Below, one piece after another: positions 1 to 34,286 of a stretch of DNA of 64,000 nucleotides (its first letter is position 1; every line of letters starts with the position of its first letter). Source of the stretch: Naegleria gruberi (taxonomy: Eukaryota); NCBI GenBank assembly GCA_000004985.1, contig GG738928.1; one strand, 5' to 3'. Position numbers and translations under genes: made by a program. The notes beneath the pieces were generated by a model. It had not been told where the DNA came from, made no database searches, and was given only the letters and a program-made list of their open reading frames with translations.

Positions 1-403
1 CCATACCCAAACCCAAACCCAAACCCAAACCCAAACCCAAATCCAAACCCAAACCCAAACCCAAACCCAAACCCAAACCCAAACCCAAACCCAAACCCAA
101 ACCCAAACCCAAACCCAAACCCAAACCCAACCCAAACCCAAACCCAAACCCAAACCCAAACCCAAACCCAACCCAAACCCAAACCCAAACCCAAACCCAA
201 ACCCAAACCCAAACCCAACCCAAACCCAAACCCAAACCCAAACCCAAACCCAAACCCAAACCCAAACCCAAACCCAAACCCAAACCCAAACCCAAACCCA
301 AACCCAAACCCAAACCCAAACCCAAACCCAAACCCAAACCCAAACCCAAACCCAAACCCAAACCCAAACCCAAACCCAAACCCAAACCCAAACCCAAACC
401 CAG
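1..403. repeat. Telomeric repeat array, (CCCAAA)n on + strand (G-strand TTTGGG), about 67 units with occasional CCCAA and CCAAAT variants; marks a chromosome left end
   Basis: Direct reading shows perfect hexamer periodicity from base 1 to about 403. Degenerate telomere-like words (ctaaacccaacg, caaaccctagcccaaaa) continue to about 460. The C-rich strand reads 5' to 3' at the sequence start. Confidence 0.85.
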
Positions 404-1053: not shown

Positions 1054-4000
1054 NNNNNNNNNNNNNNNNNNNNNNNNNNNNNNNNNNNNNNNNNNNNNNN
1101 NNNNNNNNNNNNNNNNNNNNNNNNNNNNNNNNNNNNNNNNNNNNNNNNNNNNNNNNNNNNNNNNNNNNNNNNNNNNNNNNNNNNNNNNNNNNNNNNNNNN
1201 NNNNNNNNNNNNNNNNNNNNNNNNNNNNNNNNNNNNNNNNNNNNNNNNNNNNNNNNNNNNNNNNNNNNNNNNNNNNNNNNNNNNNNNNNNNNNNNNNNNN
1301 NNNNNNNNNNNNNNNNNNNNNNNNNNNNNNNNNNNNNNNNNNNNNNNNNNNNNNNNNNNNNNNNNNNNNNNNNNNNNNNNNNNNNNNNNNNNNNNNNNNN
1401 NNNNNNNNNNNNNNNNNNNNNNNNNNNNNNNNNNNNNNNNNNNNNNNNNNNNNNNNNNNNNNNNNNNNNNNNNNNNNNNNNNNNNNNNNNNNNNNNNNNN
1501 NNNNNNNNNNNNNNNNNNNNNNNNNNNNNNNNNNNNNNNNNNNNNNNNNNNNNNNNNNNNNNNNNNNNNNNNNNNNNNNNNNNNNNNNNNNNNNNNNNNN
1601 NNNNNNNNNNNNNNNNNNNNNNNNNNNNNNNNNNNNNNNNNNNNNNNNNNNNNNNNNNNNNNNNNNNNNNNNNNNNNNNNNNNNNNNNNNNNNNNNNNNN
1701 NNNNNNNNNNNNNNNNNNNNNNNNNNNNNNNNNNNNNNNNNNNNNNNNNNNNNNNNNNNNNNNNNNNNNNNNNNNNNNNNNNNNNNNNNNNNNNNNNNNN
1801 NNNNNNNNNNNNNNNNNNNNNNNNNNNNNNNNNNNNNNNNNNNNNNNNNNNNNNNNNNNNNNNNNNNNNNNNNNNNNNNNNNNNNNNNNNNNNNNNNNNN
1901 NNNNNNNNNNNNNNNNNNNNNNNNNNNNNNNNNNNNNNNNNNNNNNNNNNNNNNNNNNNNNNNNNNNNNNNNNNNNNNNNNNNNNNNNNNNNNNNNNNNN
2001 NNNNNNNNNNNNNNNNNNNNNNNNNNNNNNNNNNNNNNNNNNNNNNNNNNNNNNNNNNNNNNNNNNNNNNNNNNNNNNNNNNNNNNNNNNNNNNNNNNNN
2101 NNNNNNNNNNNNNNNNNNNNNNNNNNNNNNNNNNNNNNNNNNNNNNNNNNNNNNNNNNNNNNNNNNNNNNNNNNNNNNNNNNNNNNNNNNNNNNNNNNNN
2201 NNNNNNNNNNNNNNNNNNNNNNNNNNNNNNNNNNNNNNNNNNNNNNNNNNNNNNNNNNNNNNNNNNNNNNNNNNNNNNNNNNNNNNNNNNNNNNNNNNNN
2301 NNNNNNNNNNNNNNNNNNNNNNNNNNNNNNNNNNNNNNNNNNNNNNNNNNNNNNNNNNNNNNNNNNNNNNNNNNNNNNNNNNNNNNNNNNNNNNNNNNNN
2401 NNNNNNNNNNNNNNNNNNNNNNNNNNNNNNNNNNNNNNNNNNNNNNNNNNNNNNNNNNNNNNNNNNNNNNNNNNNNNNNNNNNNNNNNNNNNNNNNNNNN
2501 NNNNNNNNNNNNNNNNNNNNNNNNNNNNNNNNNNNNNNNNNNNNNNNNNNNNNNNNNNNNNNNNNNNNNNNNNNNNNNNNNNNNNNNNNNNNNNNNNNNN
2601 NNNNNNNNNNNNNNNNNNNNNNNNNNNNNNNNNNNNNNNNNNNNNNNNNNNNNNNNNNNNNNNNNNNNNNNNNNNNNNNNNNNNNNNNNNNNNNNNNNNN
2701 NNNNNNNNNNNNNNNNNNNNNNNNNNNNNNNNNNNNNNNNNNNNNNNNNNNNNNNNNNNNNNNNNNNNNNNNNNNNNNNNNNNNNNNNNNNNNNNNNNNN
2801 NNNNNNNNNNNNNNNNNNNNNNNNNNNNNNNNNNNNNNNNNNNNNNNNNNNNNNNNNNNNNNNNNNNNNNNNNNNNNNNNNNNNNNNNNNNNNNNNNNNN
2901 NNNNNNNNNNNNNNNNNNNNNNNNNNNNNNNNNNNNNNNNNNNNNNNNNNNNNNNNNNNNNNNNNNNNNNNNNNNNNNNNNNNNNNNNNNNNNNNNNNNN
3001 NNNNNNNNNNNNNNNNNNNNNNNNNNNNNNNNNNNNNNNNNNNNNNNNNNNNNNNNNNNNNNNNNNNNNNNNNNNNNNNNNNNNNNNNNNNNNNNNNNNN
3101 NNNNNNNNNNNNNNNNNNNNNNNNNNNNNNNNNNNNNNNNNNNNNNNNNNNNNNNNNNNNNNNNNNNNNNNNNNNNNNNNNNNNNNNNNNNNNNNNNNNN
3201 NNNNNNNNNNNNNNNNNNNNNNNNNNNNNNNNNNNNNNNNNNNNNNNNNNNNNNNNNNNNNNNNNNNNNNNNNNNNNNNNNNNNNNNNNNNNNNNNNNNN
3301 NNNNNNNNNNNNNNNNNNNNNNNNNNNNNNNNNNNNNNNNNNNNNNNNNNNNNNNNNNNNNNNNNNNNNNNNNNNNNNNNNNNNNNNNNNNNNNNNNNNN
3401 NNNNNNNNNNNNNNNNNNNNNNNNNNNNNNNNNNNNNNNNNNNNNNNNNNNNNNNNNNNNNNNNNNNNNNNNNNNNNNNNNNNNNNNNNNNNNNNNNNNN
3501 NNNNNNNNNNNNNNNNNNNNNNNNNNNNNNNNNNNNNNNNNNNNNNNNNNNNNNNNNNNNNNNNNNNNNNNNNNNNNNNNNNNNNNNNNNNNNNNNNNNN
3601 NNNNNNNNNNNNNNNNNNNNNNNNNNNNNNNNNNNNNNNNNNNNNNNNNNNNNNNNNNNNNNNNNNNNNNNNNNNNNNNNNNNNNNNNNNNNNNNNNNNN
3701 NNNNNNNNNNNNNNNNNNNNNNNNNNNNNNNNNNNNNNNNNNNNNNNNNNNNNNNNNNNNNNNNNNNNNNNNNNNNNNNNNNNNNNNNNNNNNNNNNNNN
3801 NNNNNNNNNNNNNNNNNNNNNNNNNNNNNNNNNNNNNNNNNNNNNNNNNNNNNNNNNNNNNNNNNNNNNNNNNNNNNNNNNNNNNNNNNNNNNNNNNNNN
3901 NNNNNNNNNNNNNNNNNNNNNNNNNNNNNNNNNNNNNNNNNNNNNNNNNNNNNNNNNNNNNNNNNNNNNNNNNNNNNNNNNNNNNNNNNNNNNNNNNNNN

Positions 4001-6305
4001 NNNNNNNNNNNNNNNNNNNNNNNNNNNNNNNNNNNNNNNNNNNNNNNNNNNNNNNNNNNNNNNNNNNNNNNNNNNNNNNNNNNNNNNNNNNNNNNNNNNN
4101 NNNNNNNNNNNNNNNNNNNNNNNNNNNNNNNNNNNNNNNNNNNNNNNNNNNNNNNNNNNNNNNNNNNNNNNNNNNNNNNNNNNNNNNNNNNNNNNNNNNN
4201 NNNNNNNNNNNNNNNNNNNNNNNNNNNNNNNNNNNNNNNNNNNNNNNNNNNNNNNNNNNNNNNNNNNNNNNNNNNNNNNNNNNNNNNNNNNNNNNNNNNN
4301 NNNNNNNNNNNNNNNNNNNNNNNNNNNNNNNNNNNNNNNNNNNNNNNNNNNNNNNNNNNNNNNNNNNNNNNNNNNNNNNNNNNNNNNNNNNNNNNNNNNN
4401 NNNNNNNNNNNNNNNNNNNNNNNNNNNNNNNNNNNNNNNNNNNNNNNNNNNNNNNNNNNNNNNNNNNNNNNNNNNNNNNNNNNNNNNNNNNNNNNNNNNN
4501 NNNNNNNNNNNNNNNNNNNNNNNNNNNNNNNNNNNNNNNNNNNNNNNNNNNNNNNNNNNNNNNNNNNNNNNNNNNNNNNNNNNNNNNNNNNNNNNNNNNN
4601 NNNNNNNNNNNNNNNNNNNNNNNNNNNNNNNNNNNNNNNNNNNNNNNNNNNNNNNNNNNNNNNNNNNNNNNNNNNNNNNNNNNNNNNNNNNNNNNNNNNN
4701 NNNNNNNNNNNNNNNNNNNNNNNNNNNNNNNNNNNNNNNNNNNNNNNNNNNNNNNNNNNNNNNNNNNNNNNNNNNNNNNNNNNNNNNNNNNNNNNNNNNN
4801 NNNNNNNNNNNNNNNNNNNNNNNNNNNNNNNNNNNNNNNNNNNNNNNNNNNNNNNNNNNNNNNNNNNNNNNNNNNNNNNNNNNNNNNNNNNNNNNNNNNN
4901 NNNNNNNNNNNNNNNNNNNNNNNNNNNNNNNNNNNNNNNNNNNNNNNNNNNNNNNNNNNNNNNNNNNNNNNNNNNNNNNNNNNNNNNNNNNNNNNNNNNN
5001 NNNNNNNNNNNNNNNNNNNNNNNNNNNNNNNNNNNNNNNNNNNNNNNNNNNNNNNNNNNNNNNNNNNNNNNNNNNNNNNNNNNNNNNNNNNNNNNNNNNN
5101 NNNNNNNNNNNNNNNNNNNNNNNNNNNNNNNNNNNNNNNNNNNNNNNNNNNNNNNNNNNNNNNNNNNNNNNNNNNNNNNNNNNNNNNNNNNNNNNNNNNN
5201 NNNNNNNNNNNNNNNNNNNNNNNNNNNNNNNNNNNNNNNNNNNNNNNNNNNNNNNNNNNNNNNNNNNNNNNNNNNNNNNNNNNNNNNNNNNNNNNNNNNN
5301 NNNNNNNNNNNNNNNNNNNNNNNNNNNNNNNNNNNNNNNNNNNNNNNNNNNNNNNNNNNNNNNNNNNNNNNNNNNNNNNNNNNNNNNNNNNNNNNNNNNN
5401 NNNNNNNNNNNNNNNNNNNNNNNNNNNNNNNNNNNNNNNNNNNNNNNNNNNNNNNNNNNNNNNNNNNNNNNNNNNNNNNNNNNNNNNNNNNNNNNNNNNN
5501 NNNNNNNNNNNNNNNNNNNNNNNNNNNNNNNNNNNNNNNNNNNNNNNNNNNNNNNNNNNNNNNNNNNNNNNNNNNNNNNNNNNNNNNNNNNNNNNNNNNN
5601 NNNNNNNNNNNNNNNNNNNNNNNNNNNNNNNNNNNNNNNNNNNNNNNNNNNNNNNNNNNNNNNNNNNNNNNNNNNNNNNNNNNNNNNNNNNNNNNNNNNN
5701 NNNNNNNNNNNNNNNNNNNNNNNNNNNNNNNNNNNNNNNNNNNNNNNNNNNNNNNNNNNNNNNNNNNNNNNNNNNNNNNNNNNNNNNNNNNNNNNNNNNN
5801 NNNNNNNNNNNNNNNNNNNNNNNNNNNNNNNNNNNNNNNNNNNNNNNNNNNNNNNNNNNNNNNNNNNNNNNNNNNNNNNNNNNNNNNNNNNNNNNNNNNN
5901 NNNNNNNNNNNNNNNNNNNNNNNNNNNNNNNNNNNNNNNNNNNNNNNNNNNNNNNNNNNNNNNNNNNNNNNNNNNNNNNNNNNNNNNNNNNNNNNNNNNN
6001 NNNNNNNNNNNNNNNNNNNNNNNNNNNNNNNNNNNNNNNNNNNNNNNNNNNNNNNNNNNNNNNNNNNNNNNNNNNNNNNNNNNNNNNNNNNNNNNNNNNN
6101 NNNNNNNNNNNNNNNNNNNNNNNNNNNNNNNNNNNNNNNNNNNNNNNNNNNNNNNNNNNNNNNNNNNNNNNNNNNNNNNNNNNNNNNNNNNNNNNNNNNN
6201 NNNNNNNNNNNNNNNNNNNNNNNNNNNNNNNNNNNNNNNNNNNNNNNNNNNNNNNNNNNNNNNNNNNNNNNNNNNNNNNNNNNNNNNNNNNNNNNNNNNN
6301 NNNNN
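1054..6305. other. Unresolved N-run (5252 N); assembly gap or masked sequence
   Basis: All bases are N. The ORFs 997..6336, 1037..6343 and 1046..6514 consist mostly of X and are artefacts apart from their real flanks. Confidence 0.99.
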
Positions 6306-7695: not shown

Positions 7696-10600
7696 NNNNN
7701 NNNNNNNNNNNNNNNNNNNNNNNNNNNNNNNNNNNNNNNNNNNNNNNNNNNNNNNNNNNNNNNNNNNNNNNNNNNNNNNNNNNNNNNNNNNNNNNNNNNN
7801 NNNNNNNNNNNNNNNNNNNNNNNNNNNNNNNNNNNNNNNNNNNNNNNNNNNNNNNNNNNNNNNNNNNNNNNNNNNNNNNNNNNNNNNNNNNNNNNNNNNN
7901 NNNNNNNNNNNNNNNNNNNNNNNNNNNNNNNNNNNNNNNNNNNNNNNNNNNNNNNNNNNNNNNNNNNNNNNNNNNNNNNNNNNNNNNNNNNNNNNNNNNN
8001 NNNNNNNNNNNNNNNNNNNNNNNNNNNNNNNNNNNNNNNNNNNNNNNNNNNNNNNNNNNNNNNNNNNNNNNNNNNNNNNNNNNNNNNNNNNNNNNNNNNN
8101 NNNNNNNNNNNNNNNNNNNNNNNNNNNNNNNNNNNNNNNNNNNNNNNNNNNNNNNNNNNNNNNNNNNNNNNNNNNNNNNNNNNNNNNNNNNNNNNNNNNN
8201 NNNNNNNNNNNNNNNNNNNNNNNNNNNNNNNNNNNNNNNNNNNNNNNNNNNNNNNNNNNNNNNNNNNNNNNNNNNNNNNNNNNNNNNNNNNNNNNNNNNN
8301 NNNNNNNNNNNNNNNNNNNNNNNNNNNNNNNNNNNNNNNNNNNNNNNNNNNNNNNNNNNNNNNNNNNNNNNNNNNNNNNNNNNNNNNNNNNNNNNNNNNN
8401 NNNNNNNNNNNNNNNNNNNNNNNNNNNNNNNNNNNNNNNNNNNNNNNNNNNNNNNNNNNNNNNNNNNNNNNNNNNNNNNNNNNNNNNNNNNNNNNNNNNN
8501 NNNNNNNNNNNNNNNNNNNNNNNNNNNNNNNNNNNNNNNNNNNNNNNNNNNNNNNNNNNNNNNNNNNNNNNNNNNNNNNNNNNNNNNNNNNNNNNNNNNN
8601 NNNNNNNNNNNNNNNNNNNNNNNNNNNNNNNNNNNNNNNNNNNNNNNNNNNNNNNNNNNNNNNNNNNNNNNNNNNNNNNNNNNNNNNNNNNNNNNNNNNN
8701 NNNNNNNNNNNNNNNNNNNNNNNNNNNNNNNNNNNNNNNNNNNNNNNNNNNNNNNNNNNNNNNNNNNNNNNNNNNNNNNNNNNNNNNNNNNNNNNNNNNN
8801 NNNNNNNNNNNNNNNNNNNNNNNNNNNNNNNNNNNNNNNNNNNNNNNNNNNNNNNNNNNNNNNNNNNNNNNNNNNNNNNNNNNNNNNNNNNNNNNNNNNN
8901 NNNNNNNNNNNNNNNNNNNNNNNNNNNNNNNNNNNNNNNNNNNNNNNNNNNNNNNNNNNNNNNNNNNNNNNNNNNNNNNNNNNNNNNNNNNNNNNNNNNN
9001 NNNNNNNNNNNNNNNNNNNNNNNNNNNNNNNNNNNNNNNNNNNNNNNNNNNNNNNNNNNNNNNNNNNNNNNNNNNNNNNNNNNNNNNNNNNNNNNNNNNN
9101 NNNNNNNNNNNNNNNNNNNNNNNNNNNNNNNNNNNNNNNNNNNNNNNNNNNNNNNNNNNNNNNNNNNNNNNNNNNNNNNNNNNNNNNNNNNNNNNNNNNN
9201 NNNNNNNNNNNNNNNNNNNNNNNNNNNNNNNNNNNNNNNNNNNNNNNNNNNNNNNNNNNNNNNNNNNNNNNNNNNNNNNNNNNNNNNNNNNNNNNNNNNN
9301 NNNNNNNNNNNNNNNNNNNNNNNNNNNNNNNNNNNNNNNNNNNNNNNNNNNNNNNNNNNNNNNNNNNNNNNNNNNNNNNNNNNNNNNNNNNNNNNNNNNN
9401 NNNNNNNNNNNNNNNNNNNNNNNNNNNNNNNNNNNNNNNNNNNNNNNNNNNNNNNNNNNNNNNNNNNNNNNNNNNNNNNNNNNNNNNNNNNNNNNNNNNN
9501 NNNNNNNNNNNNNNNNNNNNNNNNNNNNNNNNNNNNNNNNNNNNNNNNNNNNNNNNNNNNNNNNNNNNNNNNNNNNNNNNNNNNNNNNNNNNNNNNNNNN
9601 NNNNNNNNNNNNNNNNNNNNNNNNNNNNNNNNNNNNNNNNNNNNNNNNNNNNNNNNNNNNNNNNNNNNNNNNNNNNNNNNNNNNNNNNNNNNNNNNNNNN
9701 NNNNNNNNNNNNNNNNNNNNNNNNNNNNNNNNNNNNNNNNNNNNNNNNNNNNNNNNNNNNNNNNNNNNNNNNNNNNNNNNNNNNNNNNNNNNNNNNNNNN
9801 NNNNNNNNNNNNNNNNNNNNNNNNNNNNNNNNNNNNNNNNNNNNNNNNNNNNNNNNNNNNNNNNNNNNNNNNNNNNNNNNNNNNNNNNNNNNNNNNNNNN
9901 NNNNNNNNNNNNNNNNNNNNNNNNNNNNNNNNNNNNNNNNNNNNNNNNNNNNNNNNNNNNNNNNNNNNNNNNNNNNNNNNNNNNNNNNNNNNNNNNNNNN
10001 NNNNNNNNNNNNNNNNNNNNNNNNNNNNNNNNNNNNNNNNNNNNNNNNNNNNNNNNNNNNNNNNNNNNNNNNNNNNNNNNNNNNNNNNNNNNNNNNNNNN
10101 NNNNNNNNNNNNNNNNNNNNNNNNNNNNNNNNNNNNNNNNNNNNNNNNNNNNNNNNNNNNNNNNNNNNNNNNNNNNNNNNNNNNNNNNNNNNNNNNNNNN
10201 NNNNNNNNNNNNNNNNNNNNNNNNNNNNNNNNNNNNNNNNNNNNNNNNNNNNNNNNNNNNNNNNNNNNNNNNNNNNNNNNNNNNNNNNNNNNNNNNNNNN
10301 NNNNNNNNNNNNNNNNNNNNNNNNNNNNNNNNNNNNNNNNNNNNNNNNNNNNNNNNNNNNNNNNNNNNNNNNNNNNNNNNNNNNNNNNNNNNNNNNNNNN
10401 NNNNNNNNNNNNNNNNNNNNNNNNNNNNNNNNNNNNNNNNNNNNNNNNNNNNNNNNNNNNNNNNNNNNNNNNNNNNNNNNNNNNNNNNNNNNNNNNNNNN
10501 NNNNNNNNNNNNNNNNNNNNNNNNNNNNNNNNNNNNNNNNNNNNNNNNNNNNNNNNNNNNNNNNNNNNNNNNNNNNNNNNNNNNNNNNNNNNNNNNNNNN

Positions 10601-13076
10601 NNNNNNNNNNNNNNNNNNNNNNNNNNNNNNNNNNNNNNNNNNNNNNNNNNNNNNNNNNNNNNNNNNNNNNNNNNNNNNNNNNNNNNNNNNNNNNNNNNNN
10701 NNNNNNNNNNNNNNNNNNNNNNNNNNNNNNNNNNNNNNNNNNNNNNNNNNNNNNNNNNNNNNNNNNNNNNNNNNNNNNNNNNNNNNNNNNNNNNNNNNNN
10801 NNNNNNNNNNNNNNNNNNNNNNNNNNNNNNNNNNNNNNNNNNNNNNNNNNNNNNNNNNNNNNNNNNNNNNNNNNNNNNNNNNNNNNNNNNNNNNNNNNNN
10901 NNNNNNNNNNNNNNNNNNNNNNNNNNNNNNNNNNNNNNNNNNNNNNNNNNNNNNNNNNNNNNNNNNNNNNNNNNNNNNNNNNNNNNNNNNNNNNNNNNNN
11001 NNNNNNNNNNNNNNNNNNNNNNNNNNNNNNNNNNNNNNNNNNNNNNNNNNNNNNNNNNNNNNNNNNNNNNNNNNNNNNNNNNNNNNNNNNNNNNNNNNNN
11101 NNNNNNNNNNNNNNNNNNNNNNNNNNNNNNNNNNNNNNNNNNNNNNNNNNNNNNNNNNNNNNNNNNNNNNNNNNNNNNNNNNNNNNNNNNNNNNNNNNNN
11201 NNNNNNNNNNNNNNNNNNNNNNNNNNNNNNNNNNNNNNNNNNNNNNNNNNNNNNNNNNNNNNNNNNNNNNNNNNNNNNNNNNNNNNNNNNNNNNNNNNNN
11301 NNNNNNNNNNNNNNNNNNNNNNNNNNNNNNNNNNNNNNNNNNNNNNNNNNNNNNNNNNNNNNNNNNNNNNNNNNNNNNNNNNNNNNNNNNNNNNNNNNNN
11401 NNNNNNNNNNNNNNNNNNNNNNNNNNNNNNNNNNNNNNNNNNNNNNNNNNNNNNNNNNNNNNNNNNNNNNNNNNNNNNNNNNNNNNNNNNNNNNNNNNNN
11501 NNNNNNNNNNNNNNNNNNNNNNNNNNNNNNNNNNNNNNNNNNNNNNNNNNNNNNNNNNNNNNNNNNNNNNNNNNNNNNNNNNNNNNNNNNNNNNNNNNNN
11601 NNNNNNNNNNNNNNNNNNNNNNNNNNNNNNNNNNNNNNNNNNNNNNNNNNNNNNNNNNNNNNNNNNNNNNNNNNNNNNNNNNNNNNNNNNNNNNNNNNNN
11701 NNNNNNNNNNNNNNNNNNNNNNNNNNNNNNNNNNNNNNNNNNNNNNNNNNNNNNNNNNNNNNNNNNNNNNNNNNNNNNNNNNNNNNNNNNNNNNNNNNNN
11801 NNNNNNNNNNNNNNNNNNNNNNNNNNNNNNNNNNNNNNNNNNNNNNNNNNNNNNNNNNNNNNNNNNNNNNNNNNNNNNNNNNNNNNNNNNNNNNNNNNNN
11901 NNNNNNNNNNNNNNNNNNNNNNNNNNNNNNNNNNNNNNNNNNNNNNNNNNNNNNNNNNNNNNNNNNNNNNNNNNNNNNNNNNNNNNNNNNNNNNNNNNNN
12001 NNNNNNNNNNNNNNNNNNNNNNNNNNNNNNNNNNNNNNNNNNNNNNNNNNNNNNNNNNNNNNNNNNNNNNNNNNNNNNNNNNNNNNNNNNNNNNNNNNNN
12101 NNNNNNNNNNNNNNNNNNNNNNNNNNNNNNNNNNNNNNNNNNNNNNNNNNNNNNNNNNNNNNNNNNNNNNNNNNNNNNNNNNNNNNNNNNNNNNNNNNNN
12201 NNNNNNNNNNNNNNNNNNNNNNNNNNNNNNNNNNNNNNNNNNNNNNNNNNNNNNNNNNNNNNNNNNNNNNNNNNNNNNNNNNNNNNNNNNNNNNNNNNNN
12301 NNNNNNNNNNNNNNNNNNNNNNNNNNNNNNNNNNNNNNNNNNNNNNNNNNNNNNNNNNNNNNNNNNNNNNNNNNNNNNNNNNNNNNNNNNNNNNNNNNNN
12401 NNNNNNNNNNNNNNNNNNNNNNNNNNNNNNNNNNNNNNNNNNNNNNNNNNNNNNNNNNNNNNNNNNNNNNNNNNNNNNNNNNNNNNNNNNNNNNNNNNNN
12501 NNNNNNNNNNNNNNNNNNNNNNNNNNNNNNNNNNNNNNNNNNNNNNNNNNNNNNNNNNNNNNNNNNNNNNNNNNNNNNNNNNNNNNNNNNNNNNNNNNNN
12601 NNNNNNNNNNNNNNNNNNNNNNNNNNNNNNNNNNNNNNNNNNNNNNNNNNNNNNNNNNNNNNNNNNNNNNNNNNNNNNNNNNNNNNNNNNNNNNNNNNNN
12701 NNNNNNNNNNNNNNNNNNNNNNNNNNNNNNNNNNNNNNNNNNNNNNNNNNNNNNNNNNNNNNNNNNNNNNNNNNNNNNNNNNNNNNNNNNNNNNNNNNNN
12801 NNNNNNNNNNNNNNNNNNNNNNNNNNNNNNNNNNNNNNNNNNNNNNNNNNNNNNNNNNNNNNNNNNNNNNNNNNNNNNNNNNNNNNNNNNNNNNNNNNNN
12901 NNNNNNNNNNNNNNNNNNNNNNNNNNNNNNNNNNNNNNNNNNNNNNNNNNNNNNNNNNNNNNNNNNNNNNNNNNNNNNNNNNNNNNNNNNNNNNNNNNNN
13001 NNNNNNNNNNNNNNNNNNNNNNNNNNNNNNNNNNNNNNNNNNNNNNNNNNNNNNNNNNNNNNNNNNNNNNNNNNNN
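7696..13076. other. Unresolved N-run (5381 N)
   Basis: All bases are N. The ORFs 6558..13160, 7632..13094, 7652..13090 and 7657..13239 are X-filled artefacts except for the real segment 6558..7695. Confidence 0.99.
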
Positions 13077-13873: not shown

Positions 13874-13923
13874 NNNNNNNNNNNNNNNNNNNNNNNNNNN
13901 NNNNNNNNNNNNNNNNNNNNNNN
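13874..13923. other. Short N-run (50 N) at the edge of a repeat copy
   Basis: All bases are N. A partial copy of repeat C starts immediately after it. Confidence 0.99.
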
Positions 13924-14235
13924 TGTCAACACTTAATATATCTTAGTGAACACTCCATCTCAATGAAAGTACATCCAATAATCCTGTAACTTTACAAATT
14001 ACGTTTAATCACACTATTATACATCTGGTATCAATTTTATAGTGTTAGAATTGAATTCAATATGATAATAATAACAATCTTTCAAAATGTCACATTTCAA
14101 TATATAGAATATACTCCATCTCAGTCAATTTACAATATATCATACAAGTATCAAGTATGGATATACTCCCCTAGATGAGGAGAACAATCTGAGAAAGTTT
14201 CATGTTCATGGCTCTGTATCTTCAAGTCAACTAAG
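13924..14235. repeat. Dispersed repeat family C, copy 0 (includes the last roughly 25 bp of family B)
   Basis: Aligns with 16915..17190 and 21590..21850. Shared blocks include tagtgaacactccatctcagtgaaagt..ataataataacaatctttcaaaatgtcacatttcaa..ctccatctcagtca. Confidence 0.7.
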
Positions 14236-15467
14236 GAACATATTAGGTAATCAATTAGGAAGAATCTTAATTCCAAAATTAAATTTTACAATCATATCAA
14301 AACCATTGAATAATGAATTATTTATACAAGAATAATATATTCAATTGTTATATTCATGTCAGTAATCAGTGAAGGTGATACTTCTTCAACCTTAGTATAC
14401 ATATCTCAATATGTAGACAGTCAATTCCACTGAAACTTGAAATATTACCTATCTAGATGATATAATGATGACTCTTCATAGTAAGATGCATGTGAAATTG
14501 AGTGTGGACCGTTTTCATCTTGTTATATTTATAGAGATGGTATCCAACAGAGTCAGTTCACAATATTAAATATTGAAACTCATTCTATGTGACATGTTTG
14601 ATGTACGGAACGGTTTTTTATTGAATGTAATCAGTTTGAAATAATCTGATGAAATTGACACTGTCTAGTCACCATTACATGACAAATAGACCATAGTTTA
14701 CATTCCCTCTCAGTCATTTCAACGATTTATTGATTAATTCCACCACCATTATGTTTCTCGTACATTGTAGTACAGTTTATATTTCAAGAGTGATGTCTGT
14801 GTAGATTTTTATAATCGTAATACCATTCAATACCAATAAAACTCAATAGAAGTGTTAATTCTTCTCATTTTCAAATAGAGTATTCAATATAGAACACATC
14901 TAGATAGTTTCCAGATCATAAAAGTCAAGCTACTATATATGGTCTTTGATTAAATTTAAAAATAGACTGCCGTTAATTACTGGAATATTAATTCAAAGCT
15001 TGATGATAAAGCTGTTGATTGAAATCAAACCGATTATTGAATATTGATCATTGAATTGGTGAATAATCACTCTTGATAATGTTACTTATTCAGATTGCAT
15101 GCAAATCAACCTGATTCAATCTACAAAGGTTGGTAGTTGCACCACTACGTGGCGAAACTACCCATCCACGATCAATCAACATAAGAATCACTTCCATTCA
15201 ACTCAATTTGACCGTTATAATCAATAAATCAATGAAATGTTCCTTTATTAGCAATACCTATTCAATCTAACGAGTAGATTCACGTCCCAAACATTTGACT
15301 TCTAAAAGTCCATAATTCACAAGTTAGTACTGACCTGACCTTTAAATATCTATCAATACAAGAAATGAAACCATCAAATTTACATCATTAATAGATGATA
15401 AGAAATATAATCAATGATATGAATCTTCACTAAGTAATCTCTTAAATAACCCAAATAAATCAACTCT

Positions 15468-15492
15468 GAATCCTAACCAAACCCAACCCACT
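15468..15492. repeat. Interstitial telomere-like seed (cctaaccaaacccaaccca) immediately 5' of repeat A copy 2
   Basis: A short degenerate run of CCCAAA-type units is seen directly, abutting the start of the second family-A copy. Confidence 0.55.
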
Positions 15493-15990
15493 TTGTAAAT
15501 AATGTCAGATTAAAATTTCTAAAATGAAACCATAGGAAGAATGATAATTTCAAAATCCTTTAATGAGATTATATAGTATATATCATCATTAACAACATTT
15601 ATAATCACTTTCATATAAAATTTCAAAAGTTCAAGTCTGTAGATATAAAAGTATAGAGGGAAAAGGGAAGTTGTGAGGTACAAGAGGTCAACTATAACTT
15701 TTGAGTTTCTCATCAAAACATATTGAATCCTAATATGAAAATGTTCCATTTGATGAGTATACGTCGAATATCAAATTTATTTTAACTTTCATATTTACAG
15801 ATTTCTTCCCTCAACCATCATACGGTCAACTATGATGAACAGGATGAAATCTTGAAAAAGGACCACCTATTGAAACTTTACCAAAATGATGTACATGATC
15901 TATAATGATATAGAATTCAATTTCATGTCCTAATAATCAGAAATGGTATCATGGGAAGGTAAATGTTGATATTTTTTGGTTGACTTTAGA
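15493..15990. repeat. Subtelomeric repeat family A, copy 2 (internal)
   Basis: About 500 bp aligns to 527..1053 at roughly 85-90% identity. It is followed at 16035..16255 by a degenerate partial third copy sharing gaaaatgctccattcgatgagta..atcaagtttattttaactttt..gaaactttaccatcatg. Confidence 0.75.
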
Positions 15991-16034
15991 GAAAGACAAG
16001 TCAGACCAACTCTATCAAATACATCACTTCAACC

Positions 16035-16255
16035 AACAATATATACATGAAAATGCTCCATTCGATGAGTAGAGATAGAATATCAAGTTTATTTTAACTT
16101 TTATATTCACGATTTCAACTCTAACATGCCATCTGATAAACTATGGACACGGATGAATTTCTGGAAAATGACCACTTTATGAAACTTTACCATCATGTTA
16201 TACATCTCTACTAATGTATATGGTTCAATTTTCAGACAGTTTGGTGAACATTCTA
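16035..16255. repeat. Degenerate partial copy of repeat family A
   Basis: Shares blocks with family A (ccatt[ct]gatgagta, atatcaa[ag]tttatttt[ga]actt, gaaactttacca.catg.tatacat.tcta.taatg) at lower identity. Confidence 0.5.
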
Positions 16256-16470
16256 TCTTTCAATAAGGCAAAGGGTGAAATTTCAAGGTTGTCTTTGGAA
16301 GATCAGGAGGAAATCTTGAATATAGAGAACCAAATCCTCAATCTACAAAATACATATCAATCGATTGGAAATCAATAGTACATCTCGAAAATATCATTTA
16401 TTTTATGTTTTGAAATCTCTCCTTGACCTCTTTTAGTCAATTAAGACAATTAAGGATGAGACTATAGGAA

Positions 16471-17190
16471 AAGTTACCAATCTCAAAATAAATGATAATA
16501 TCGTGTTCCACATCTCAAATAAAGTGGACTTTCTTCAAATTATATATTTTCATTTCAATAAATGCATCCGTTAGATAGTACATGGTGATATTTCAATGGA
16601 ATGGATGGAAATCTGAAAGGTACAGAAACAACTCCATTTTCACTTAAATCAATATCATTACATGTAGACGCTCTAATTAGAATATGATATCAATTTCATG
16701 AATATTGGTTCAGTAGATGTCGACATGTCAACTCTATCAATTTACTATAGACATTTGACATGATATCATAGATTAAGCTCCAACTCACTCATTTTACGTA
16801 CAATCAGTCTAGAAATGATGATAAATAATATACACATCTATAAAATACATCTACAATAGTTTAAAAACGTTTCAAACTACTTTCATAAAATTAATCAGTA
16901 AATGTTCAATGTCAATCCTAGGTATACCATAGTGAACACTTCATCTCAGTGAAGGTACACCCAATCATCCTATAACTTTGCCAGATACGTTTAATCATAC
17001 TATTGTACATATTGTATTAATTTTAGATATTCTGAATAGAAATTGACTTGATAATAATAACAATCTGTCAAAAAAGTAACTTTTCAATATATAGAATACG
17101 CTCCAGCTCATTCAGTTTGTATAATATCAAACAAGTATGAAACATGAACACATTCCTATTGGTGATAGGTACAATCTGAGAAAGATTCAT
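16471..17190. repeat. Composite dispersed repeat B+C, copy 1
   Basis: Aligns along its whole length with 21141..21850. Shared text runs from aagttaccaatctcaaaataaatgataatatcgtgttc.acatctcaaataaagtggacttt through ctccatctcagtca. Confidence 0.75.
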
Positions 17191-17214: not shown

Positions 17215-19700
17215 CATACAAGAATTGAATCAAGTATCCATTTACTTGGATTGAACTTTACATAAGCACACCGGGTTTGAGCCACACCAAGCTCATTTGA
17301 GAAAGTGTAATTTAATTTTACAACGGGTTTGAGCCACACCATGTTCATTTGAAACAATTTCAAGTCGTTTTTACATCGGGTTTGACGACAACCACTGTTT
17401 AAAGATAACATTTGTGAAAAATCGACTGATCTCAATCATTATTAAGAATTTGAGTATACTCCAATGGAATGTTACCATCTACATACAGTTTAGAACATTT
17501 TCCATCCCCTTGTAAAAATTCCTTAATAATTTTGAAATATTCAAAGTTCAGTAAGAATGCAAAAATTTTAATTTGTTGTATAGTATAATACAGTATCATC
17601 AAAAAGTTGGATAACTCATTCTTTTGAAAAGAAGCAACGGGTTTGAGCCACTCCACGTTCATTTGAAACAATTTCAAAAAGTTTTTACATCGGGTTGGAT
17701 GACAACCATTGTTTTAAAGATTACAGTTGTGAAAAATCGACTGATCTCAATCATTTCTGAGAATTTAAGTATACTGTAAAGGACTGGTACCATTTCTATC
17801 GAGTTTTGAACATTTTCCATCTACTTGAAAAAATTCCTTACTAATTGTGAAGTAAGAAAAGTTCAGTAAGAATGTAAAAATTTTAATTTGTTGTATAGTA
17901 TAATACAGTCTTGTCAAAAGGTTGGATACGTCACTCTTTCGAAAAGAAGCAACGGGTTTGAGCCACTCCACGTTCATTTGAAACAATTTCAAACAGTTTT
18001 TACATCGGGTTGGATAACAACCATTGTTTTAAAGATTACAGTTGTGAAAAAATGGCAAATCTCAATCATTTTTGAGAATTTAACTATACTGTAAAAGACT
18101 GTCACCATTTCCATCGAGTTTTGAACATTTTCCAATCACTTGTAAAAAATTCTTAATAATTGTGAACTACTCAAAGTTCACTAAGATAGAAATATTTCAT
18201 AAACTTATAGTTCCTTATTGTAAGGAATTGTCAAAAGGTCTGAAATCCACTTTCATGAATATAATCAACAGGTTTGAGCCAATCCATGTTCATTTGAAAC
18301 AATTTCAAACAGTTTTTACATCGGGTTGGATGACAACCACTGTTTTAAAGATTACAGTTGTGAAAAAATGGAAAATCTCAATCATTATGGATATTTTGAG
18401 TATACTCCAATGGAATGTTACTATCTACATACAGTTTAGAACATTTTCCATCCCCTTGTAAAAATTCCTTAATAATTTTGAAATATTCAAAGTTCAGTAA
18501 GATTGCAAACAATTTACTTTGTTGAATAGTGTATTACAGCCTCATCACAATCGATCAGGAACTTTTTTGAAAAGAAGCAACGGGTTTGAGCCACTCCAAG
18601 CTCATTTGAAACAGTTTCAAAAAGTTTTTACATCGGGTTGGATGACAACCACTGTTTTAAAGATTACAGTTGTGAAAAAATGGCAAATCTCAATCATTTT
18701 TGAGAATTTAAGTATACTGTAAAGGACTGGTACCATTTCCATCGAGTTTTGAACATTTTCCATCTACTTGAAAAAATTCCTTACTAATTGTGAAATATTC
18801 AAAGTTCAGTAAGAAAGTTTAATTGTGAAAATGTTGCCAGAATACCAGTTAAAATTGTATTCCGATTGAATTTTACGTAAGCACACCGGGTTTGAGCCAC
18901 ACCAAGCTCATTTAAGAAAGTTTAATTTAATTTTACAACGGGTTTGAGCCAGTCCATGGAGTTGTTAGTAAAGAGTGGTTGGATGAAATCACTGTTTCAA
19001 AGATAACAGTTGTGAAAAATCGACCAATCTCAATCATTATTAAGAATTTGAGTATAGTTCAATGGAATTATACCATCTATAGCCAGTTTTGAACATTTTC
19101 CATCGACTTGTAAAAATTCCTTAATAATTAGGATGAAGGAAAAGTTCACTAAGAAAAGACAATGTTAATTTGTTGAACAGTATTGTACAATCCCCACCTA
19201 AAGGTTGAATAAGTCACTCTTTTGAGAAGAAGCAACGGGTTTGAGCAACTCCAAGCTCATTTGAAACATTTAATAGTAGTTGTTACATCGGGTTGGATGA
19301 CAACCACTGTTTTAAAGATTACAGTTGTGAAAAATAGACTGATCTCAATCATTATTGAGAATTTAAGTACACTTTAAAGGACTGCCACCATTTCCATCGA
19401 TTTTGGAACATTTTCCATCTACTTGAAACAATNNNNNNNNNNNNNNNNNNNNNNNNNNNNNNNNNNNNNNNNNNNNNNNNNNCATTTGAAACAATTTCAA
19501 ACAGTTTTAATCGGGTTGGATGACAACCATTGTTTAAAAGATAACAGTTGTGAAAAAATGGCAAATCTCAATCATTTCTTAGAATTTAACTATGCTGTAA
19601 CGGAATGTTACCATCTACAGCAATTTTAGAACACTTTCCATCTACTTGAAACAATTCCTTAATAATTATGATGCAAGCAAAGTTCACTAAGAAAAGAATA
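17215..19700. repeat. Tandem satellite array, about 8 units with period roughly 300-330 bp
   Basis: A conserved core (caacgggtttgagccactccacgttcatttgaaacaatttcaaacagtttttacatcgggttggatgacaaccactgttttaaagattacagttgtgaaaaaatggcaaatctcaatcatt..gagaatttaagtatactgtaaaggactg..ccatttccatcgagttttgaacattttccatc) recurs at about 17636, 17951, 18272, 18587, 18937, 19238 and 19483, with shortened variants at 17272 and 18887. A 50-N run lies inside the array. The repeated small ORFs here (MKLFQMNVEWLKPVASF...) derive from the repeat. Confidence 0.8.
19433..19482. other. Short N-run (50 N) inside the satellite array
   Basis: All bases are N. Confidence 0.99.
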
Positions 19701-21126
19701 TTTCAAAAACTTATTGTTGGTGGAATGATTCTGCACAACTATAGAGCATCTCCTTGTTCCGATATTGTACATGTGGATATTAGTAAAAAAACCACCACTA
19801 TAACAAAATTTTTTGTTTTGGTCCAACAGATGATGAGAATTGGCACTTGTAAATGTTGAAAATAATGTTATACCAATTCTACATCATACACAACTTGGCT
19901 ACTTATCCATCATTTACAAAATGATACAATTGAAATAAATATCATATCTCAATTTAAATATAGAGATGGTCAATTAAGGTACCTCAATAGGGAAGTACCC
20001 TAAGGACAATGAGATTCAATACCAAATTGATACAATATGTTATTAACATCATATAATGAGGTTTCTATCAATTTCAAATCATTTGGACATCATTCAGTAT
20101 TCATGCCATTTAACCATGTCACTAACTACTCATGATAATATGACAAGTCAATATCAAGATGTTCAACAAGATAGAATATCATACAAATACTCTTATAATT
20201 GATGTTCATAACGTATTTGAGTGATACAAATCAATATCTATATAATTGGACTATCTGTCAAGCTACTGTCCTAATTGACAAAAAGGTAACATTCTTACAT
20301 GTCATGAATGGTAATAATCAACACCAATTCAATACTACCATGTTATAATCATCAAATACTCTCATCGAATCAATTTTGGAATGATTTCAATATCATCTTA
20401 GATAGTTATCATATGACAAAGTTACTACCTTAGTGAACTACCCACGTCATTAATAAATGTCTAAAACCAAATCTTTCAATTATATATTCATATATATATC
20501 AATAATAGTGTATAATATCAGTTTTATAATATATAATCAATTATTGGTATGATGGCAATATTTCAATTAAACATTGACATTGCAACATTTCGCAAATTGG
20601 AAATATAGGTCATAACATCATGATATTCAACATTTAGTGATAAAGTAAAACGATGACATATATTATCCAATAAAATATTCAGATCCCTTTAAAAGTGTTA
20701 ACCACATCAAAAGCTCCCCATGCAAGTTGACTTCCAAAAGTCTCAAAATGGATCCAATCATGATTTTTTCAGTGATATATGATTACCATTCATATTCACT
20801 ACTGTATTTATCAGTATTATTGAATTTTATTGTGTTTCCATATTATAGGTCAACATCTTGGTCAATTAATCATTTACTAGTAGAAAAGCTACAAGGAAAT
20901 GTTTCTCTCTAGTCACCACCCAATAACCTCCTCTTCATGAAGAAGAGTTCCAAATCTTGAGATGAGAACCTTGTTCACTTTCAATATGTTGAATTAATGC
21001 AACCACTTTCCCATTCTTCTATCAAGTGTTGTCACAATAAGAAGCTTCTGATTCGTATCAACAATAAACAATTTCAAAATCTTAAATCAATAAGAGATTG
21101 GAGTAAGAGGTATCCGAGGTTCGTAG

Positions 21127-21140
21127 AACCAAACCCAAAG
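21127..21140. repeat. Interstitial telomere-like seed (aaccaaacccaaag) immediately 5' of repeat B copy 2
   Basis: Seen directly at the junction with copy 2 of repeat B. Copy 1 of B (16471) lacks the seed. Confidence 0.45.
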
Positions 21141-21850
21141 TTACCAATCTCAAAATAAATGATAATATCGTGTTCTACATCTCAAATAAAGTGGACTTTC
21201 ATCAAATTATATATTTTCATTTCAAGAAATGCATCCAGTAGATAGTACATGGTGATTTGTCAGGAGAATGGATGGAAATCTGAAGGGTCCAGAAACAACT
21301 CCAATTTAACTGAAATTGATATCATGGTATGTAGACACTCTAATTAGTATGTGGTATCAATTTCATGAATATTGGTTCAGTAGATGTCGAGATGTCAACA
21401 CTATCAATTTACTATAGACATTTGACATAATATCATAGATTATACTCCAACTCACTCATTTTACATATAATAAGTCTAGAATTGATACCACATAGTCTAT
21501 ATATCAATTAATATACATCTACAATAGTTAAGAAACATTTCAAACTATTTTCATAAAATTAATCAGTAAATGTTCAATATCAACATTATATATATCCTAG
21601 TGAACACTCCATCTCAGTGAAAGTTATTCCAATCATTCTGTAACTTTACCCAATACGTTTAATCACATTATTATACATCTGGTATCAATTGCATACAGTT
21701 AGAATTGAATTCAATATGATAATAATAACAATCTTTCAAAATGTCACATTTCAAAAAAAAGATTACACTCCATCTCAGTCAGTTTACAAATATCATACTA
21801 GTATCAAATATGAATACACTCCTCTTGATGAGGATCTGAGAAGTTTCAAT
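21141..21850. repeat. Composite dispersed repeat B+C, copy 2
   Basis: Aligns with 16471..17190 at roughly 85% identity, with indels. Confidence 0.75.
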
Positions 21851-23173
21851 TGATGGCTCAGTATCTTCAAGTCAACTAAGTAACCTAAGAATAGACAAGT
21901 CAATTAAGTACATCAAGTCAACAATTGAAAATTGAAATATAGTATATTTATTACAAATTAATAGGACTGTTCTAAATAACCATAGTGTTTAAATCAATGT
22001 TTGTAAAGTTGTCAATACATCATGTCACAGATCATACTCTTTCTCAATGAATACTTGACTAAATCAATTGAAATTGACATCTAGTTGTTTATATGTAGTA
22101 TTGTATATGTGGTATCAATATCTTTTAAAATTGTCAAGTATTAAGGAAGATCTAAAAAATAAGGTGGTAATAATGAATAAGTTAGTAAAATCACCTTGAA
22201 TCGATCACTCGTCACTTAATTGACACTCCAACATACAACCACTGAACCAACAGTGCTAAAGCTTTAATTTCTAGAAATGATTCGTATGAATAACCAAGGG
22301 GTTGTATGACTATTAAGGGAAAATTGTCGGTTTCTATTAAGAACAACAATTAACAACAAATAACAACAAGAATCGTATCATTATATGATAATAACAATAA
22401 TTTATTAAACGATATGGAAGGGAGAAGTTGCTCCCTCACCAAATGATGAGGGGAAGATTCAACTTGATGATCAAGAGATGGTACCTCCACCAATCTACTT
22501 AAATTATAGAATCATTGAAGATTATCCTGATGATCTTGTTGATAAATAGATTCATACATCGGAATAGTTTTGGAAGCAGAGTTATTTAGCGTTGTATTTT
22601 GATAATCGTAATATTTTAAAGGGTTAAAAATGGAGTTGATTAATGCGATTATCAAAATAATGGCTTCAGATCCATGGCTATTAGCATTGCCAACAAGCAA
22701 ATAACTTGTGGAGTGAGAAACATTACCACTTCCACCTTCTAAATAATATTAATAAATATTATTTACTTGTTCCTTAATGATCTTAATGATATCGGAATAA
22801 GTGCGCACCGCAATTAAAGGTAGTTTCACACTTGTTCAACACAGCTATTAAGCAATAGAAAATTAACAAGTTTAACACCAATTCAAATACAAAATACTCA
22901 ACAATTACTGAATTAAATGCAAATATCCCAACGTCATTTTGTAGAGAATTAAGTTGAACCTATGCGATTTTTCACCTTTTGCCAAATGGTTGCGTATCTA
23001 CCAAGCCCCCCCCAAGAGAACAAAAAACACAGAAATATTGAGGTAAAACGAGTTGATTATCTCCATTATTTGATAGCAACCAATATTAAAATTATATATC
23101 AGCATGTAGCCGTGAACATTTCCTATCTAATGATATATATTGATGTATATGAAGTCTTATAAATAATGATGTT

Positions 23174-24133: not shown

Positions 24134-24541
24134 GGAAAATTTTTAACAACTCGTCACTTATTAAGCATACCCGAATATTTTCACTTTATTTTGTAATTTA
24201 CAATCGGAAACAAGTCCATTCCTCATATTCAATCGGAATTCAACATCATTTCAAATCTAAACTAGTAATGGGTAAGTAACTACACTCACCTTACATGCTC
24301 ACAATAATTACAATATCTCATTAAGTGTGGAAGGCAGTAATTTGATGATTGGATTTATTGACATGGTGTCTTTACATCATCTTGGCGACTTGATTTTTAT
24401 CAAGGCTTTGTTGTAATGCCAAGTGGTGGTTTTTTGTAAATCCAGACCAAAATCCATCACTAGGAAATTGATGATATTTAATTAATAGATGATTACATCA
24501 TCCTTCCAACATATGCCAAATATCAACATCATCACAAAAAA

Positions 24542-26393
24542 ATGTCAAACCGATCTCAACCTGTTGATTCATCAACCCAAGAATCGGAATCACACAAAAA
24601 ACACAAACCAAACTCTCTCACTATTCATCACCTAACACAAGATGAAATGAGTATTGTTTTAAACTTCCTTCACAAGGGTGAAATTTTAATTCTGGCCACT
24701 CTGTGTAAACAACTTTACTCCACTATTTACAATCTAGTGGAGAGTATCATTCATCCGAGAGAATTTAATGTTGAAAATTGGAGTTCCAGATCGTTGGAAA
24801 GCATGCTCTCCCACTACTCTTGGTTAGATGTTGGGAAGAAGACGATCAGGAAAGAAATTGAAGAAATGGCTAATAGAGGAGGAATTGAACGATTGGCTAA
24901 AGTTTTTTACGCAGAATTTGAAGATGCTGATGATGTTTTCAGCATTCCATTGAGAAAAGAGGATAAATATTCAAAAATCTCACAACAATGGATCAAACTT
25001 AGTAACAAATATCAAGATACAAGAAATACTGTTGAAGAGACTGTGGTCGATCAAGTACCTGTTGGATTTCAAGTTAGGAAACTTTGTTTAGTCTCCAACA
25101 ATCCCTTCAAAACTTTGAACTATTTGCAAAATATTGAAGAATTACTCTTACATCGTCGTCATGTGGGTAATGTGGAACCTCTCAGTGATGGATTCAGAGC
25201 AATCATGTTAAACAAGTTGAGAATACTTCGTATTGATTTGTCTGATTGTGAGGATTATATGAAAGCTTACATTTCTGGTTTATTGCAATTGAGCCCAAAC
25301 TTGGAAAGACTTGAAAGTACGAGTTGCTTATTACAGTGGGATGACGAATTAATTGTATTTATATCAGAAATGTGCAAAAAATTGAAAAAAATCAAATTGA
25401 AGGGAAATTCAAATATATCTGATGATTCACTTTATAAGGTTTTTAAAAATCTTCCTCACTTGACTCATTTTGAAATTGAAAATAATGCAGTATTTACTGG
25501 AAAGTTTTTGAGTAAGATTGGAGAGTTTCCACAGTTGAAATTTTTCAAAGTGGACAGAAGAGGTGATGATTTGGTTGAAAGTTGTGCAGACCTACATTTA
25601 GGGGGTGGTATTCTTCCTAATTTAGAATTTTTGGAACTGGGTATTGAGTATGATAGTATCTATGAGAATGAACATTTATTTATTGAAAGTTTAAAGTTGG
25701 TAACACCCAATCTTAAATGTGCTGGTTCTATGATTAATATCTATGAAGGTTATGTCTGCAGGTATGCTCTAAAAACTCTCGAATTATTCGTGAATACCCT
25801 TGAAAGTTTTACACTTAGTACTATTAGCGCATTATGTAATCCCATTATTGCTGCCAAGTTTTTCAAGTTGTTACCAAATGTCAAAACTTTTAAGGTAGAA
25901 GGTGTCTTGACGCTCGATGTTTTAAAAGAATTGGAAATTCATTCTAAAGTAGAAAAATTGACATTGGAAACAACAGTATTGAGCCTTGAGTATTTACTTA
26001 AACTCTCAAAAGTGTTTCCAAATCTTAAAATATTGAAATTCAAAGAGAATGTTTCATCATCCTATGATACACAAACAGCAGATGTACTGAATGTTTTGAA
26101 AGTTATAAATGATGGACATTTCCAGCATTTGGAAATGATAAGCATTTATGGAATGCAATTTCTTGGAAATGATAAGCATTTATGGAATGCAATTTCTCGA
26201 TGAATGGTCAGAAATAAGAAAAGAATTTGTCATGGCAAGACCTTTTCTATTGCTTCTAACAACATTGGGAGATGAAGAAGGGAGCTTTGAATTTTCAAAT
26301 GACCAACAAAAAGATTTTGAGTATAAGTGGCTAGTGTTGGACAAGAATTTATCCAAACTTGACATGTTTCCAAAAAATGATTTTCTAATGTAA
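24542..26393 (+). CDS. F-box/leucine-rich-repeat protein. The frame is broken by a perfect 34-bp tandem duplication at 26129..26196. Removing one copy restores a single ORF of about 605 codons ending at 26393.
   Basis: The N-terminus carries an F-box-like motif (LTQDEMSIVLNFLHKGEILILATLCKQLYSTIYN). The body carries LRR-like repeats (LxxLxLxxC, LKKIKLKGNSNISDDSL, LPHLTHFEIENN). ORF 24542..26203 ends ...LEMISIYGMQFLGNDKHLWNAISR*. ORF 26148..26393 restarts in the other frame with LEMISIYGMQFLDEWSEIRKEF... The unit ttggaaatgataagcatttatggaatgcaatttc is present twice, back to back. Confidence 0.6.
26129..26196 (+). repeat. Perfect 2 x 34-bp tandem duplication inside a coding region; causes a +1 frameshift
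   Basis: Counting bases shows copy 1 at 26129..26162 and copy 2 at 26163..26196, both reading ttggaaatgataagcatttatggaatgcaatttc. Confidence 0.9.
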
Positions 26394-33282: not shown

Positions 33283-34135
33283 AAGAAAACTATTATGGAA
33301 ATTAATTTATTATTTTTTTGCAGTTTTGATTGGATCTTTTATTTTAGGATTAATTCTTATTGCACTTTCGATGGATGAGTACATTCCAAATGAAATTGGA
33401 ACATATTATTGGTTGATATCTTGGTTGTCAATTGGAATTTTGTCAATTCCTTCCTTTTATGGAAGTTTATTTTATTTTGTGGACTTGGCTTCCTCACATG
33501 TTTCTAATTGGTGGACTAAAGTATGCTATTTCCTGATTCAGAATTATTGAGCTATATTGCAATTCCTGCTTATATCATTGCTATCTTTCGTTTGCTGTTT
33601 ACCCTCCTTTGGAGTCTAGTAAGTTTCAGTCAATTCGAAAATTAATTTAACATTTGACAGTTTGTCCACAACATCAAATTCACTCACTTCAATTCCAAGT
33701 TTATTCTTTGGAATCATGATGCTTTCCCTTCAAATATTCCTCATCTTACTATTCTCCAAAATTGATGGATTCGAATACTTGGTCAACATTCCATTTTCAA
33801 TCATTTTCATTCCCATTCACATTTCCTTATTATGTTTTCCAATTGGACTTTCCATTACAATATTTTTTGAAGTTTTTTCTAGTTCCAAGCTGTTAGTATC
33901 GATTGGATATGCAGGAGGAATTGGCCTGCTACTTTTCCTTATTTTAAGTATGGTCCATATTTCAGTGTTGTTAATTGGTTTTGTTTTGGATTCGTTTATT
34001 TTGCAAAGTGTATTTCCATTTATAGCAGTTTTGGGTTCGATTCTTGGGATGGTTTTGGTGGTGGTCTGTGTTGCGTTGAGTATTGTTGGTGTTGTTTTCT
34101 TGGTGCTTTGTTTAATGAATAATGGTAATCATTAG
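33227..34135 (+). CDS. Multi-pass membrane protein, gene model unresolved. The hydrophobic ORFs 33227..33550 and 33662..34135 are linked by a GTAAGT...GACAG intron at 33619..33660. A single in-frame TGA at 33548..33550 lies between them.
   Basis: Both ORFs are strongly hydrophobic with multiple TM helices. The frame of ORF 33227 stays open after its TGA up to the GTAAGT donor (..IQNY*AILQFLLISLLSFVCCLPSFGV). Splicing to 33661 continues in frame into LSTTSNSLTSIPSLFFGIMMLSL... The relationship to the upstream F-box gene is unclear. Confidence 0.3.
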
Positions 34136-34214: not shown

Positions 34215-34286
34215 TAGCAAATCTAGGTTTCGATCCTAGGACCTATGGGTTATGAGCCCATCGCGCTTCCACTGCGCCAATTTGCT
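34215..34286 (-). tRNA. Initiator tRNA-Met (anticodon CAT)
   Basis: The reverse complement reads AGCAAAT-U-GGCGC-AGUGGAA-GCGC-G-AUGGG-CUCAUAA-CCCAU-AGGUC-CUAGG-AUCGAAA-CCUAG-AUUUGCU-A. A1:U72, three G:C pairs closing the anticodon stem and the AUCGAAA T-loop are all eukaryotic initiator hallmarks. Confidence 0.85.

Follow-up and report, generated by a model that had tools for sequence, protein, structure and literature searches.

A diverged 315-bp tandem repeat array in a Naegleria gruberi subtelomere

Telomere-associated sequences (TAS) and other subtelomeric satellites, such as the TARE/rep20 arrays of Plasmodium and the TAS of Drosophila, are non-coding tandem repeats that sit in the gene-free stretch separating the telomere tract from the first genes. 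TAS families occur at many chromosome ends, often cover tens of kilobases and have documented roles in heterochromatin and silencing. In yeast, ARS and Tbf1/Reb1 sites are found in the X and Y' elements, and Y' has a helicase ORF as well. No description of N. gruberi subtelomeric or satellite repeats, or of Naegleria centromere and subtelomere DNA, was found in the literature that could be searched. Here we describe a small tandem array from this organism, analysed within a 64-kb stretch of contig GG738928.1 (64,000 nucleotides, hereafter the window), and we weigh what it is likely to be.

The chromosome end and its duplicated blocks

The window opens with a telomere tract, (CCCAAA)n at 1-402, in which TRF finds 67.5 copies of a period of 6 with 97% matches. 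Since TTTGGG is the candidate telomere repeat of N. gruberi (PMC3622300), the left end of the window is a chromosome end, and an earlier note on this DNA, made from the letters alone, was right to speak of a subtelomere. Variants recur within the tract: CCCAAC is seen, for example, at 125-136, 166-177 and 213-224, and CCATAC and CCAAAT occur once each. A ciliate genetic code, prompted by the CCCAAA telomere, was considered and is excluded, both by ORFs of 500-840 aa that are long only with the standard code and by an exact protein match, the ORF at 48480-50210 (minus strand) being 100% identical to N. gruberi protein NAEGRDRAFT_75708.

The array lies about 17 kb from the chromosome end, inside a gene-free zone of 23 kb. 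The interval from 13.9 to 23.1 kb contains no ATG-start ORF longer than 76 aa, and no RNA family or RNA gene was found in it; six-frame translations of the flanks of the array contain no Pfam domain. The first long ORF past this zone (24482-26200, plus strand, 573 aa) is also without a Pfam domain. Genes for five tRNAs, those of Met, Arg, Val, Pro and Thr, are spread over less than 25 kb of a gene-dense region (Table 1). Four runs of N interrupt the first 23 kb, at 1054-6305, 7696-13076, 13874-13923 and 19433-19482. Both 50-N gaps appear to be placeholders, whose real size is not given by the N count, and the two gaps of ~5.3 kb could contain more copies of the satellite or of the blocks, X and Y, that lie around it.

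These blocks are low-copy duplications that share one orientation and together make up the mosaic around the array (Table 1). The array starts where the homology of X copy 2 to copies 1 and 3 stops, at about 17190. Block X has neither TG...CA ends nor an ORF or a Pfam domain, and thus resembles a segmental duplicate and not a solo LTR; its copy 1 opens abruptly at the edge of the 50-N gap 13874-13923. Within the inner copy of block Y there is a second, partial tandem duplication (15735-15923 against 16047-16231, with ~310-bp spacing and 76% identity), which is unrelated to the array, the satellite profile giving no match to it. Telomere-like strings, CCAAACCCAACCCA and ACCAAACCCAAA, are found at 15477-15490 and 21128-21139 and are oriented like the terminal tract; the first is at, or overlaps, the left edge of Y copy 2, and the second that of X copy 3. 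Their position at block edges suggests relics of former chromosome ends that have since been extended, a reading that is suggestive and not significant because the strings are just 10-11 nt long.

Table 1. Coordinates of the features of the window, counted from its first letter
Feature	Coordinates	Strand	Remarks
Telomere tract	1-402	+	C-rich strand on plus; few CCCAAC variants; chromosome end
Block X copy 1	13924-14242		partial; 77-86% identity to copy 2
Block Y internal copy	15490-15994	+	89% identity to telomere-adjacent 554-1053
Block X copy 2	16470-17190	+	abuts left edge of array
Head 1	17249-17316	+	~20 bp unique plus truncated unit start, model positions 5-47; nhmmer E 4.5e-07
Unit 1 (type A)	17317-17630	+	314 bp; unit alignment; nhmmer E 4.6e-93
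Unit 2 (type B)	17631-17945	+	315 bp; reference unit; nhmmer E 1e-100
Unit 3 (type C)	17946-18261	+	316 bp; distinct tail matching tail of unit 8; alignment, nhmmer
Unit 4 (type A')	18262-18573	+	312 bp; 87% identity to unit 1; alignment, nhmmer
Unit 5 (type B')	18574-18845	+	truncated at model position 292; 87% identity to unit 2
Head 2	18864-18935	+	opens second, colinear block; nhmmer E 3.5e-06
Unit 6 (type A)	18936-19228	+	293 bp; internal deletion/replacement close to start
Unit 7 (type B)	19229-19432	+	ended at model position 204 by assembly gap
50-N assembly gap	19433-19482		inside array; placeholder, at least 139 bp absent
Unit 8 (type C-like)	19483-19722	+	begins at model position 29; last unit, passes into unique sequence
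Block X copy 3	21137-21887	+	1.4 kb right of array; 84-90% identity to copy 2
tRNA genes	34215-34286, 48192-48264, 52755-52828, 53898-53969, 58431-58504		

Anatomy and divergence of the array

TRF calls a repeat of period 315 at 17321-18815 (4.8 copies, 81% matches, score 1937), and searches by blastn, with the unit 17635-17949, and by nhmmer, with a profile of the aligned units, find eight copies within 17320-19722 (E 1e-100 to 1e-68), together with two short and incomplete ones at 17269-17311 and 18884-18925. Outside the array, neither search gives a further unit match in the window. The tandem array proposed in the earlier note therefore exists, and it is periodic as described, with two corrections: it runs head to tail from 17249 to about 19722, where 17215-19700 had been given, and its period is 315 bp (range 312-316 bp) instead of ~320 bp. 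The count of roughly eight units also holds, the array being composed of eight full or truncated units and two "head" fragments of 68-72 bp, which carry just the first ~45 bp of the unit and are 94% identical to each other. Eight is the number of assembled copies, and the 50-N gap inside the array may conceal more; from the model positions at which unit 7 ends and unit 8 begins, the sequence missing from it comes to 139 bp or more (139 + n x 315). Shortened variants had likewise been noticed correctly: besides the two heads, unit 5 is truncated, with ~18 bp of junction sequence after it, and unit 6 has an internal deletion.

Conservation is uneven along the unit. In the unit alignment, majority identity per column is ~90% over the first ~240 bp and ~77% over the last ~75 bp. 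A better-kept core, put at ~220 bp in the earlier note, is thus present at ~240 bp, but the variable spacer envisaged beside it does not stand as unrelated sequence: since the last ~75 bp are still ~77% identical, they belong to the unit too and are simply less conserved. The GC-richness ascribed to the core proves marginal, with 31.6% for the array against 29.4% for the flanks, and it is below the 34.3% of the genic part; the first 100 bp of the unit alone reach 34-37%. Two conserved motifs, GGGTTTGAGCC (seven occurrences) and GGTTGGATGAC (five), are restricted to the array and have only CGGGTTKGA in common, and the CpG-containing CGGGTT is retained in nearly all units. This unevenness (the 5' 240 bp and CGGGTT) could mean constraint, for instance by a putative protein-binding site, beyond what history alone would leave.

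The alignment of the units, which had been proposed as a way to estimate their divergence, gives pairwise identities of 70-90%. Neighboring units are 77-85% identical, whereas units three apart are more alike than most neighbors, units 1 and 4 and units 2 and 5 both reaching 87%. At a larger scale, head 1, unit 1 and unit 2 (17236-17830) are colinear with head 2, unit 6 and unit 7 (18861-19425) at ~87% identity, a value that resembles that of the flanking X and Y duplicates (84-90%), and the whole can be written as [head-A-B-C-A'-B'][head-A-B-(gap)-C]. Because units several positions apart are closer than neighbors, multi-unit duplication is indicated. Judged from the alignment, the units themselves are old and diverged, and blocks of several units were duplicated afterwards, an apparent signature of unequal exchange and not of active homogenization.

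Coding, RNA and mobile-element signatures

Two of the unit lengths, 315 and 312 bp, are divisible by three, some frames have just 2-3 stops per unit, and ORFs extend up to 125 aa, all of which would suit a decayed coding repeat, that is, the pseudogene of a repeat protein with a domain of ~105 codons. However, the stops amount to 41-58 per frame across 840 codons and recur at matching positions from unit to unit, and the variable alignment columns are spread evenly by codon phase (25/31/28), so that substitutions carry no codon-phase bias. The six-frame Pfam scan of the array gave nothing above threshold, LRR types included, and both of the very large protein collections searched were silent: the concatenated array ORFs have no homologue among 5.8 billion clustered proteins, and the longest ORF (125 aa) has none among 1.84 billion representatives. 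A BspA/LRR-like reading of the minus strand was also tried and is excluded by zero matches to Pfam LRR families. We regard the coding-repeat reading as largely refuted and, as an account of the array, extremely improbable.

Tandem RNA gene arrays, too, combine a conserved core with a more variable tail, and TTTTT runs follow the first motif in most of the units here. Each unit could in principle be a small RNA gene, either of Pol III type with internal A and B boxes or a tandem snRNA/5S-like gene, the tail serving as spacer. Four results argue against this: (i) between 16000 and 22500, Rfam gives no family even at E <= 10, and ARAGORN gives no tRNA. (ii) The B-box consensus GGTTCGANNCC, searched with one mismatch allowed, is absent from the array; elsewhere in the window it matches a single chance site besides the five tRNA genes. 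(iii) The unit folds no better than shuffled sequence (z 0.18 and 0.01 for the two strands). (iv) Unit divergence, at 10-30%, is well above what is usual for functional RNA gene arrays. The chance site is a B-box-like 11-mer at 34034-34044 that has no tRNA-like context. The resemblance to a tRNA B-box or T-arm that the earlier note had seen in the two motifs does not survive these searches, and a tRNA B-box in the array is excluded by the B-box search, ARAGORN and Rfam. That impression was the sole likeness to tRNA-derived SINEs and SINE-derived satellites; unlike in tRNA-derived SINEs, neither the B-box consensus nor the tRNA covariance model nor ARAGORN gives a match in the array. Neither the internal B-box and tRNA-like sequence or structure of tRNA-derived and Pol III elements nor the family match and stable fold of tandem structured-RNA arrays (5S, snRNA, SL RNA) was found here, and we give an RNA gene in each unit only the slimmest of chances.

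A mobile origin has two points in its favor. The start of the array coincides exactly with the loss of X copy 2 homology, which has the look of an insertion or replacement, and a minus-strand frame of the array scores a summed 26.7 bits for Int_N (PF24624), near the cutoff of 27. The array could then be what is left of a mobile element, or such an element's internal tandem-repeat region, inserted in block X and later decayed; candidates would be non-autonomous DNA transposons, Helitrons, LTR elements and tyrosine-recombinase elements. Nonetheless, the Int_N score is a sum over copies: a single unit reaches 13-14.6 bits (E 0.05-0.15), its 30-residue match runs across a stop codon, and the PHROGs integrase families have no match in the array. 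The supposed tyrosine-recombinase remnant is thus an artifact of adding weak matches across tandem copies. In addition, the array is not framed by long inverted repeats, terminal inverted repeats or long terminal repeats, six-frame Pfam searches find no transposase, reverse-transcriptase or integrase domain in either flank, and the array occurs once in the 64-kb window. The terminal repeats, target-site duplication or adjacent domains by which a transposon-internal tandem repeat is recognized are therefore not seen, and we consider a mobile-element origin quite improbable.

Origin, chromosomal role and related systems

What the locus does display are tandem copies, a position between the telomere and the first gene, and a non-coding character, as expected of a subtelomeric tandem repeat; in this respect, the non-coding, satellite-type array in the subtelomere that the earlier note had proposed is supported. 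We consider that it is probably an ordinary telomere-associated tandem repeat that yields no specific product and owes its form to local duplication together with unequal or ectopic recombination. We infer its mode of origin from the relationships among units. A sequence of ~315 bp would have been duplicated into three diverging units, A, B and C, and multi-unit blocks would then have been copied via unequal sister-chromatid exchange or ectopic recombination; the low-copy segmental duplications around it would be what recombination and break-induced replication usually leave at chromosome ends. Such an array most likely makes no sequence-specific product, and at most may add to a repeat-rich, probably heterochromatic buffer that extends from the telomere to the first gene. 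In N. gruberi, 5mC concentrates disproportionately in repetitive regions, and hypermethylated regions overlap H3K9me3 and H3K27me3 (PMC12344493); by analogy, a heterochromatic state of the array is plausible.

A larger role can be imagined. The array might be a member of a genome-wide satellite with a chromosomal function, either common to many or all N. gruberi subtelomeres, where it would nucleate heterochromatin or serve as a boundary, or as the centromeric repeat of the species, its 5' part being a putative platform for chromatin proteins. The confirmed tandem organization and telomere-proximal position would agree with this, as would the uneven conservation, with a well-kept part of ~240 bp and CGGGTT retained; Naegleria centromere DNA is unmapped, and the assembly gaps could conceal a larger array. 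A preprint on the Naegleria kinetochore reports CENP-A foci by imaging, and its text makes no mention of ChIP (10.64898/2026.08.18.745565). Against such a role stand the small size and the state of the array. Centromeric satellites form long homogenized arrays, and here ~2.5 kb are assembled (the gap may conceal more), in units that are 70-90% identical and give no sign of homogenization; being short and diverged, the array is unlike typical satellites of that class. There is no other copy in the 64-kb window, and a telomere-adjacent array is unlikely to be the sole centromere. We therefore judge a genome-wide satellite with a chromosomal role unlikely, and nothing supports a centromeric or chromosome-end-specific role of the array, which would require far more of the family to lie outside the window. 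A bolder version, in which the 315-bp unit is a genome-wide satellite monomer that marks all subtelomeres, as a heterochromatin or boundary element bound via its conserved CGGGTT-containing core, or the centromeres, and in which these 2.5 kb are the collapsed or peripheral, diverged edge of a much larger array hidden by the gaps, strikes us as very improbable.

Several signals that might have pointed to bound proteins or to finer structure faded on closer inspection. GGGTTTG telomeric heptamers, considered as binding sites, have a background of 0.7 per kb outside the array, so that one per unit is unremarkable. Base autocorrelation over 17249-19432 gives a weak periodicity of ~10 bp (and ~21 bp) in the units that is absent in the flanks; as a signal of nucleosome positioning or curvature it is rejected, with z of 1.8-4.2 per unit, mostly non-significant after correction for the lags, which leaves unit 3 only. 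Both findings also speak against the chromosomal role. A sub-repeat of ~52 bp between two CGGGTT motifs has an alignment score of 13, against a shuffle mean of 12.4, and was discarded. In other sequence collections, scanning metagenome contigs for both motifs yielded three matches, all by chance, in contigs of 42-49% GC and with no wider similarity, and a scan of viral contigs gave zero matches.

The present value of the locus lies in the repeat architecture of one N. gruberi chromosome end, which is made up of a telomere, duplicated blocks that form a patchwork and bear telomere-like seeds at their edges, and a single tandem array, small and diverged. If the family proved common to chromosome ends, or bound by CENP-A, the array would matter more, and its genome-wide distribution could readily be probed with the 315-bp consensus.

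Three known systems place the array in context: (i) As in alpha satellite and its higher-order repeats, distant units are closer to each other than adjacent ones are (unit 1 with unit 4, unit 2 with unit 5, the first block with the second). In contrast to alpha satellite, there are two block copies at ~87% identity, with no long homogenized array and no sign of centromere function. (ii) Yeast X/Y' elements with their interstitial telomere repeats have no sequence relationship to this locus; the N. gruberi blocks have no ORF or defined site, and the seeds measure 10-11 nt. Nevertheless, the N. gruberi end is likewise a patchwork of low-copy blocks in one orientation (X three times, Y twice), and the short telomere-like seeds at block edges give it the look of former ends extended by recombination. 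(iii) Unlike the TAS families, a single 2.5-kb array of diverged units is seen here, in one 64-kb window. Like TAS and other subtelomeric satellites, however, this array is non-coding and tandem, lies in the zone from telomere to gene within a mosaic of duplicated blocks, and appears to have been shaped by unequal recombination.
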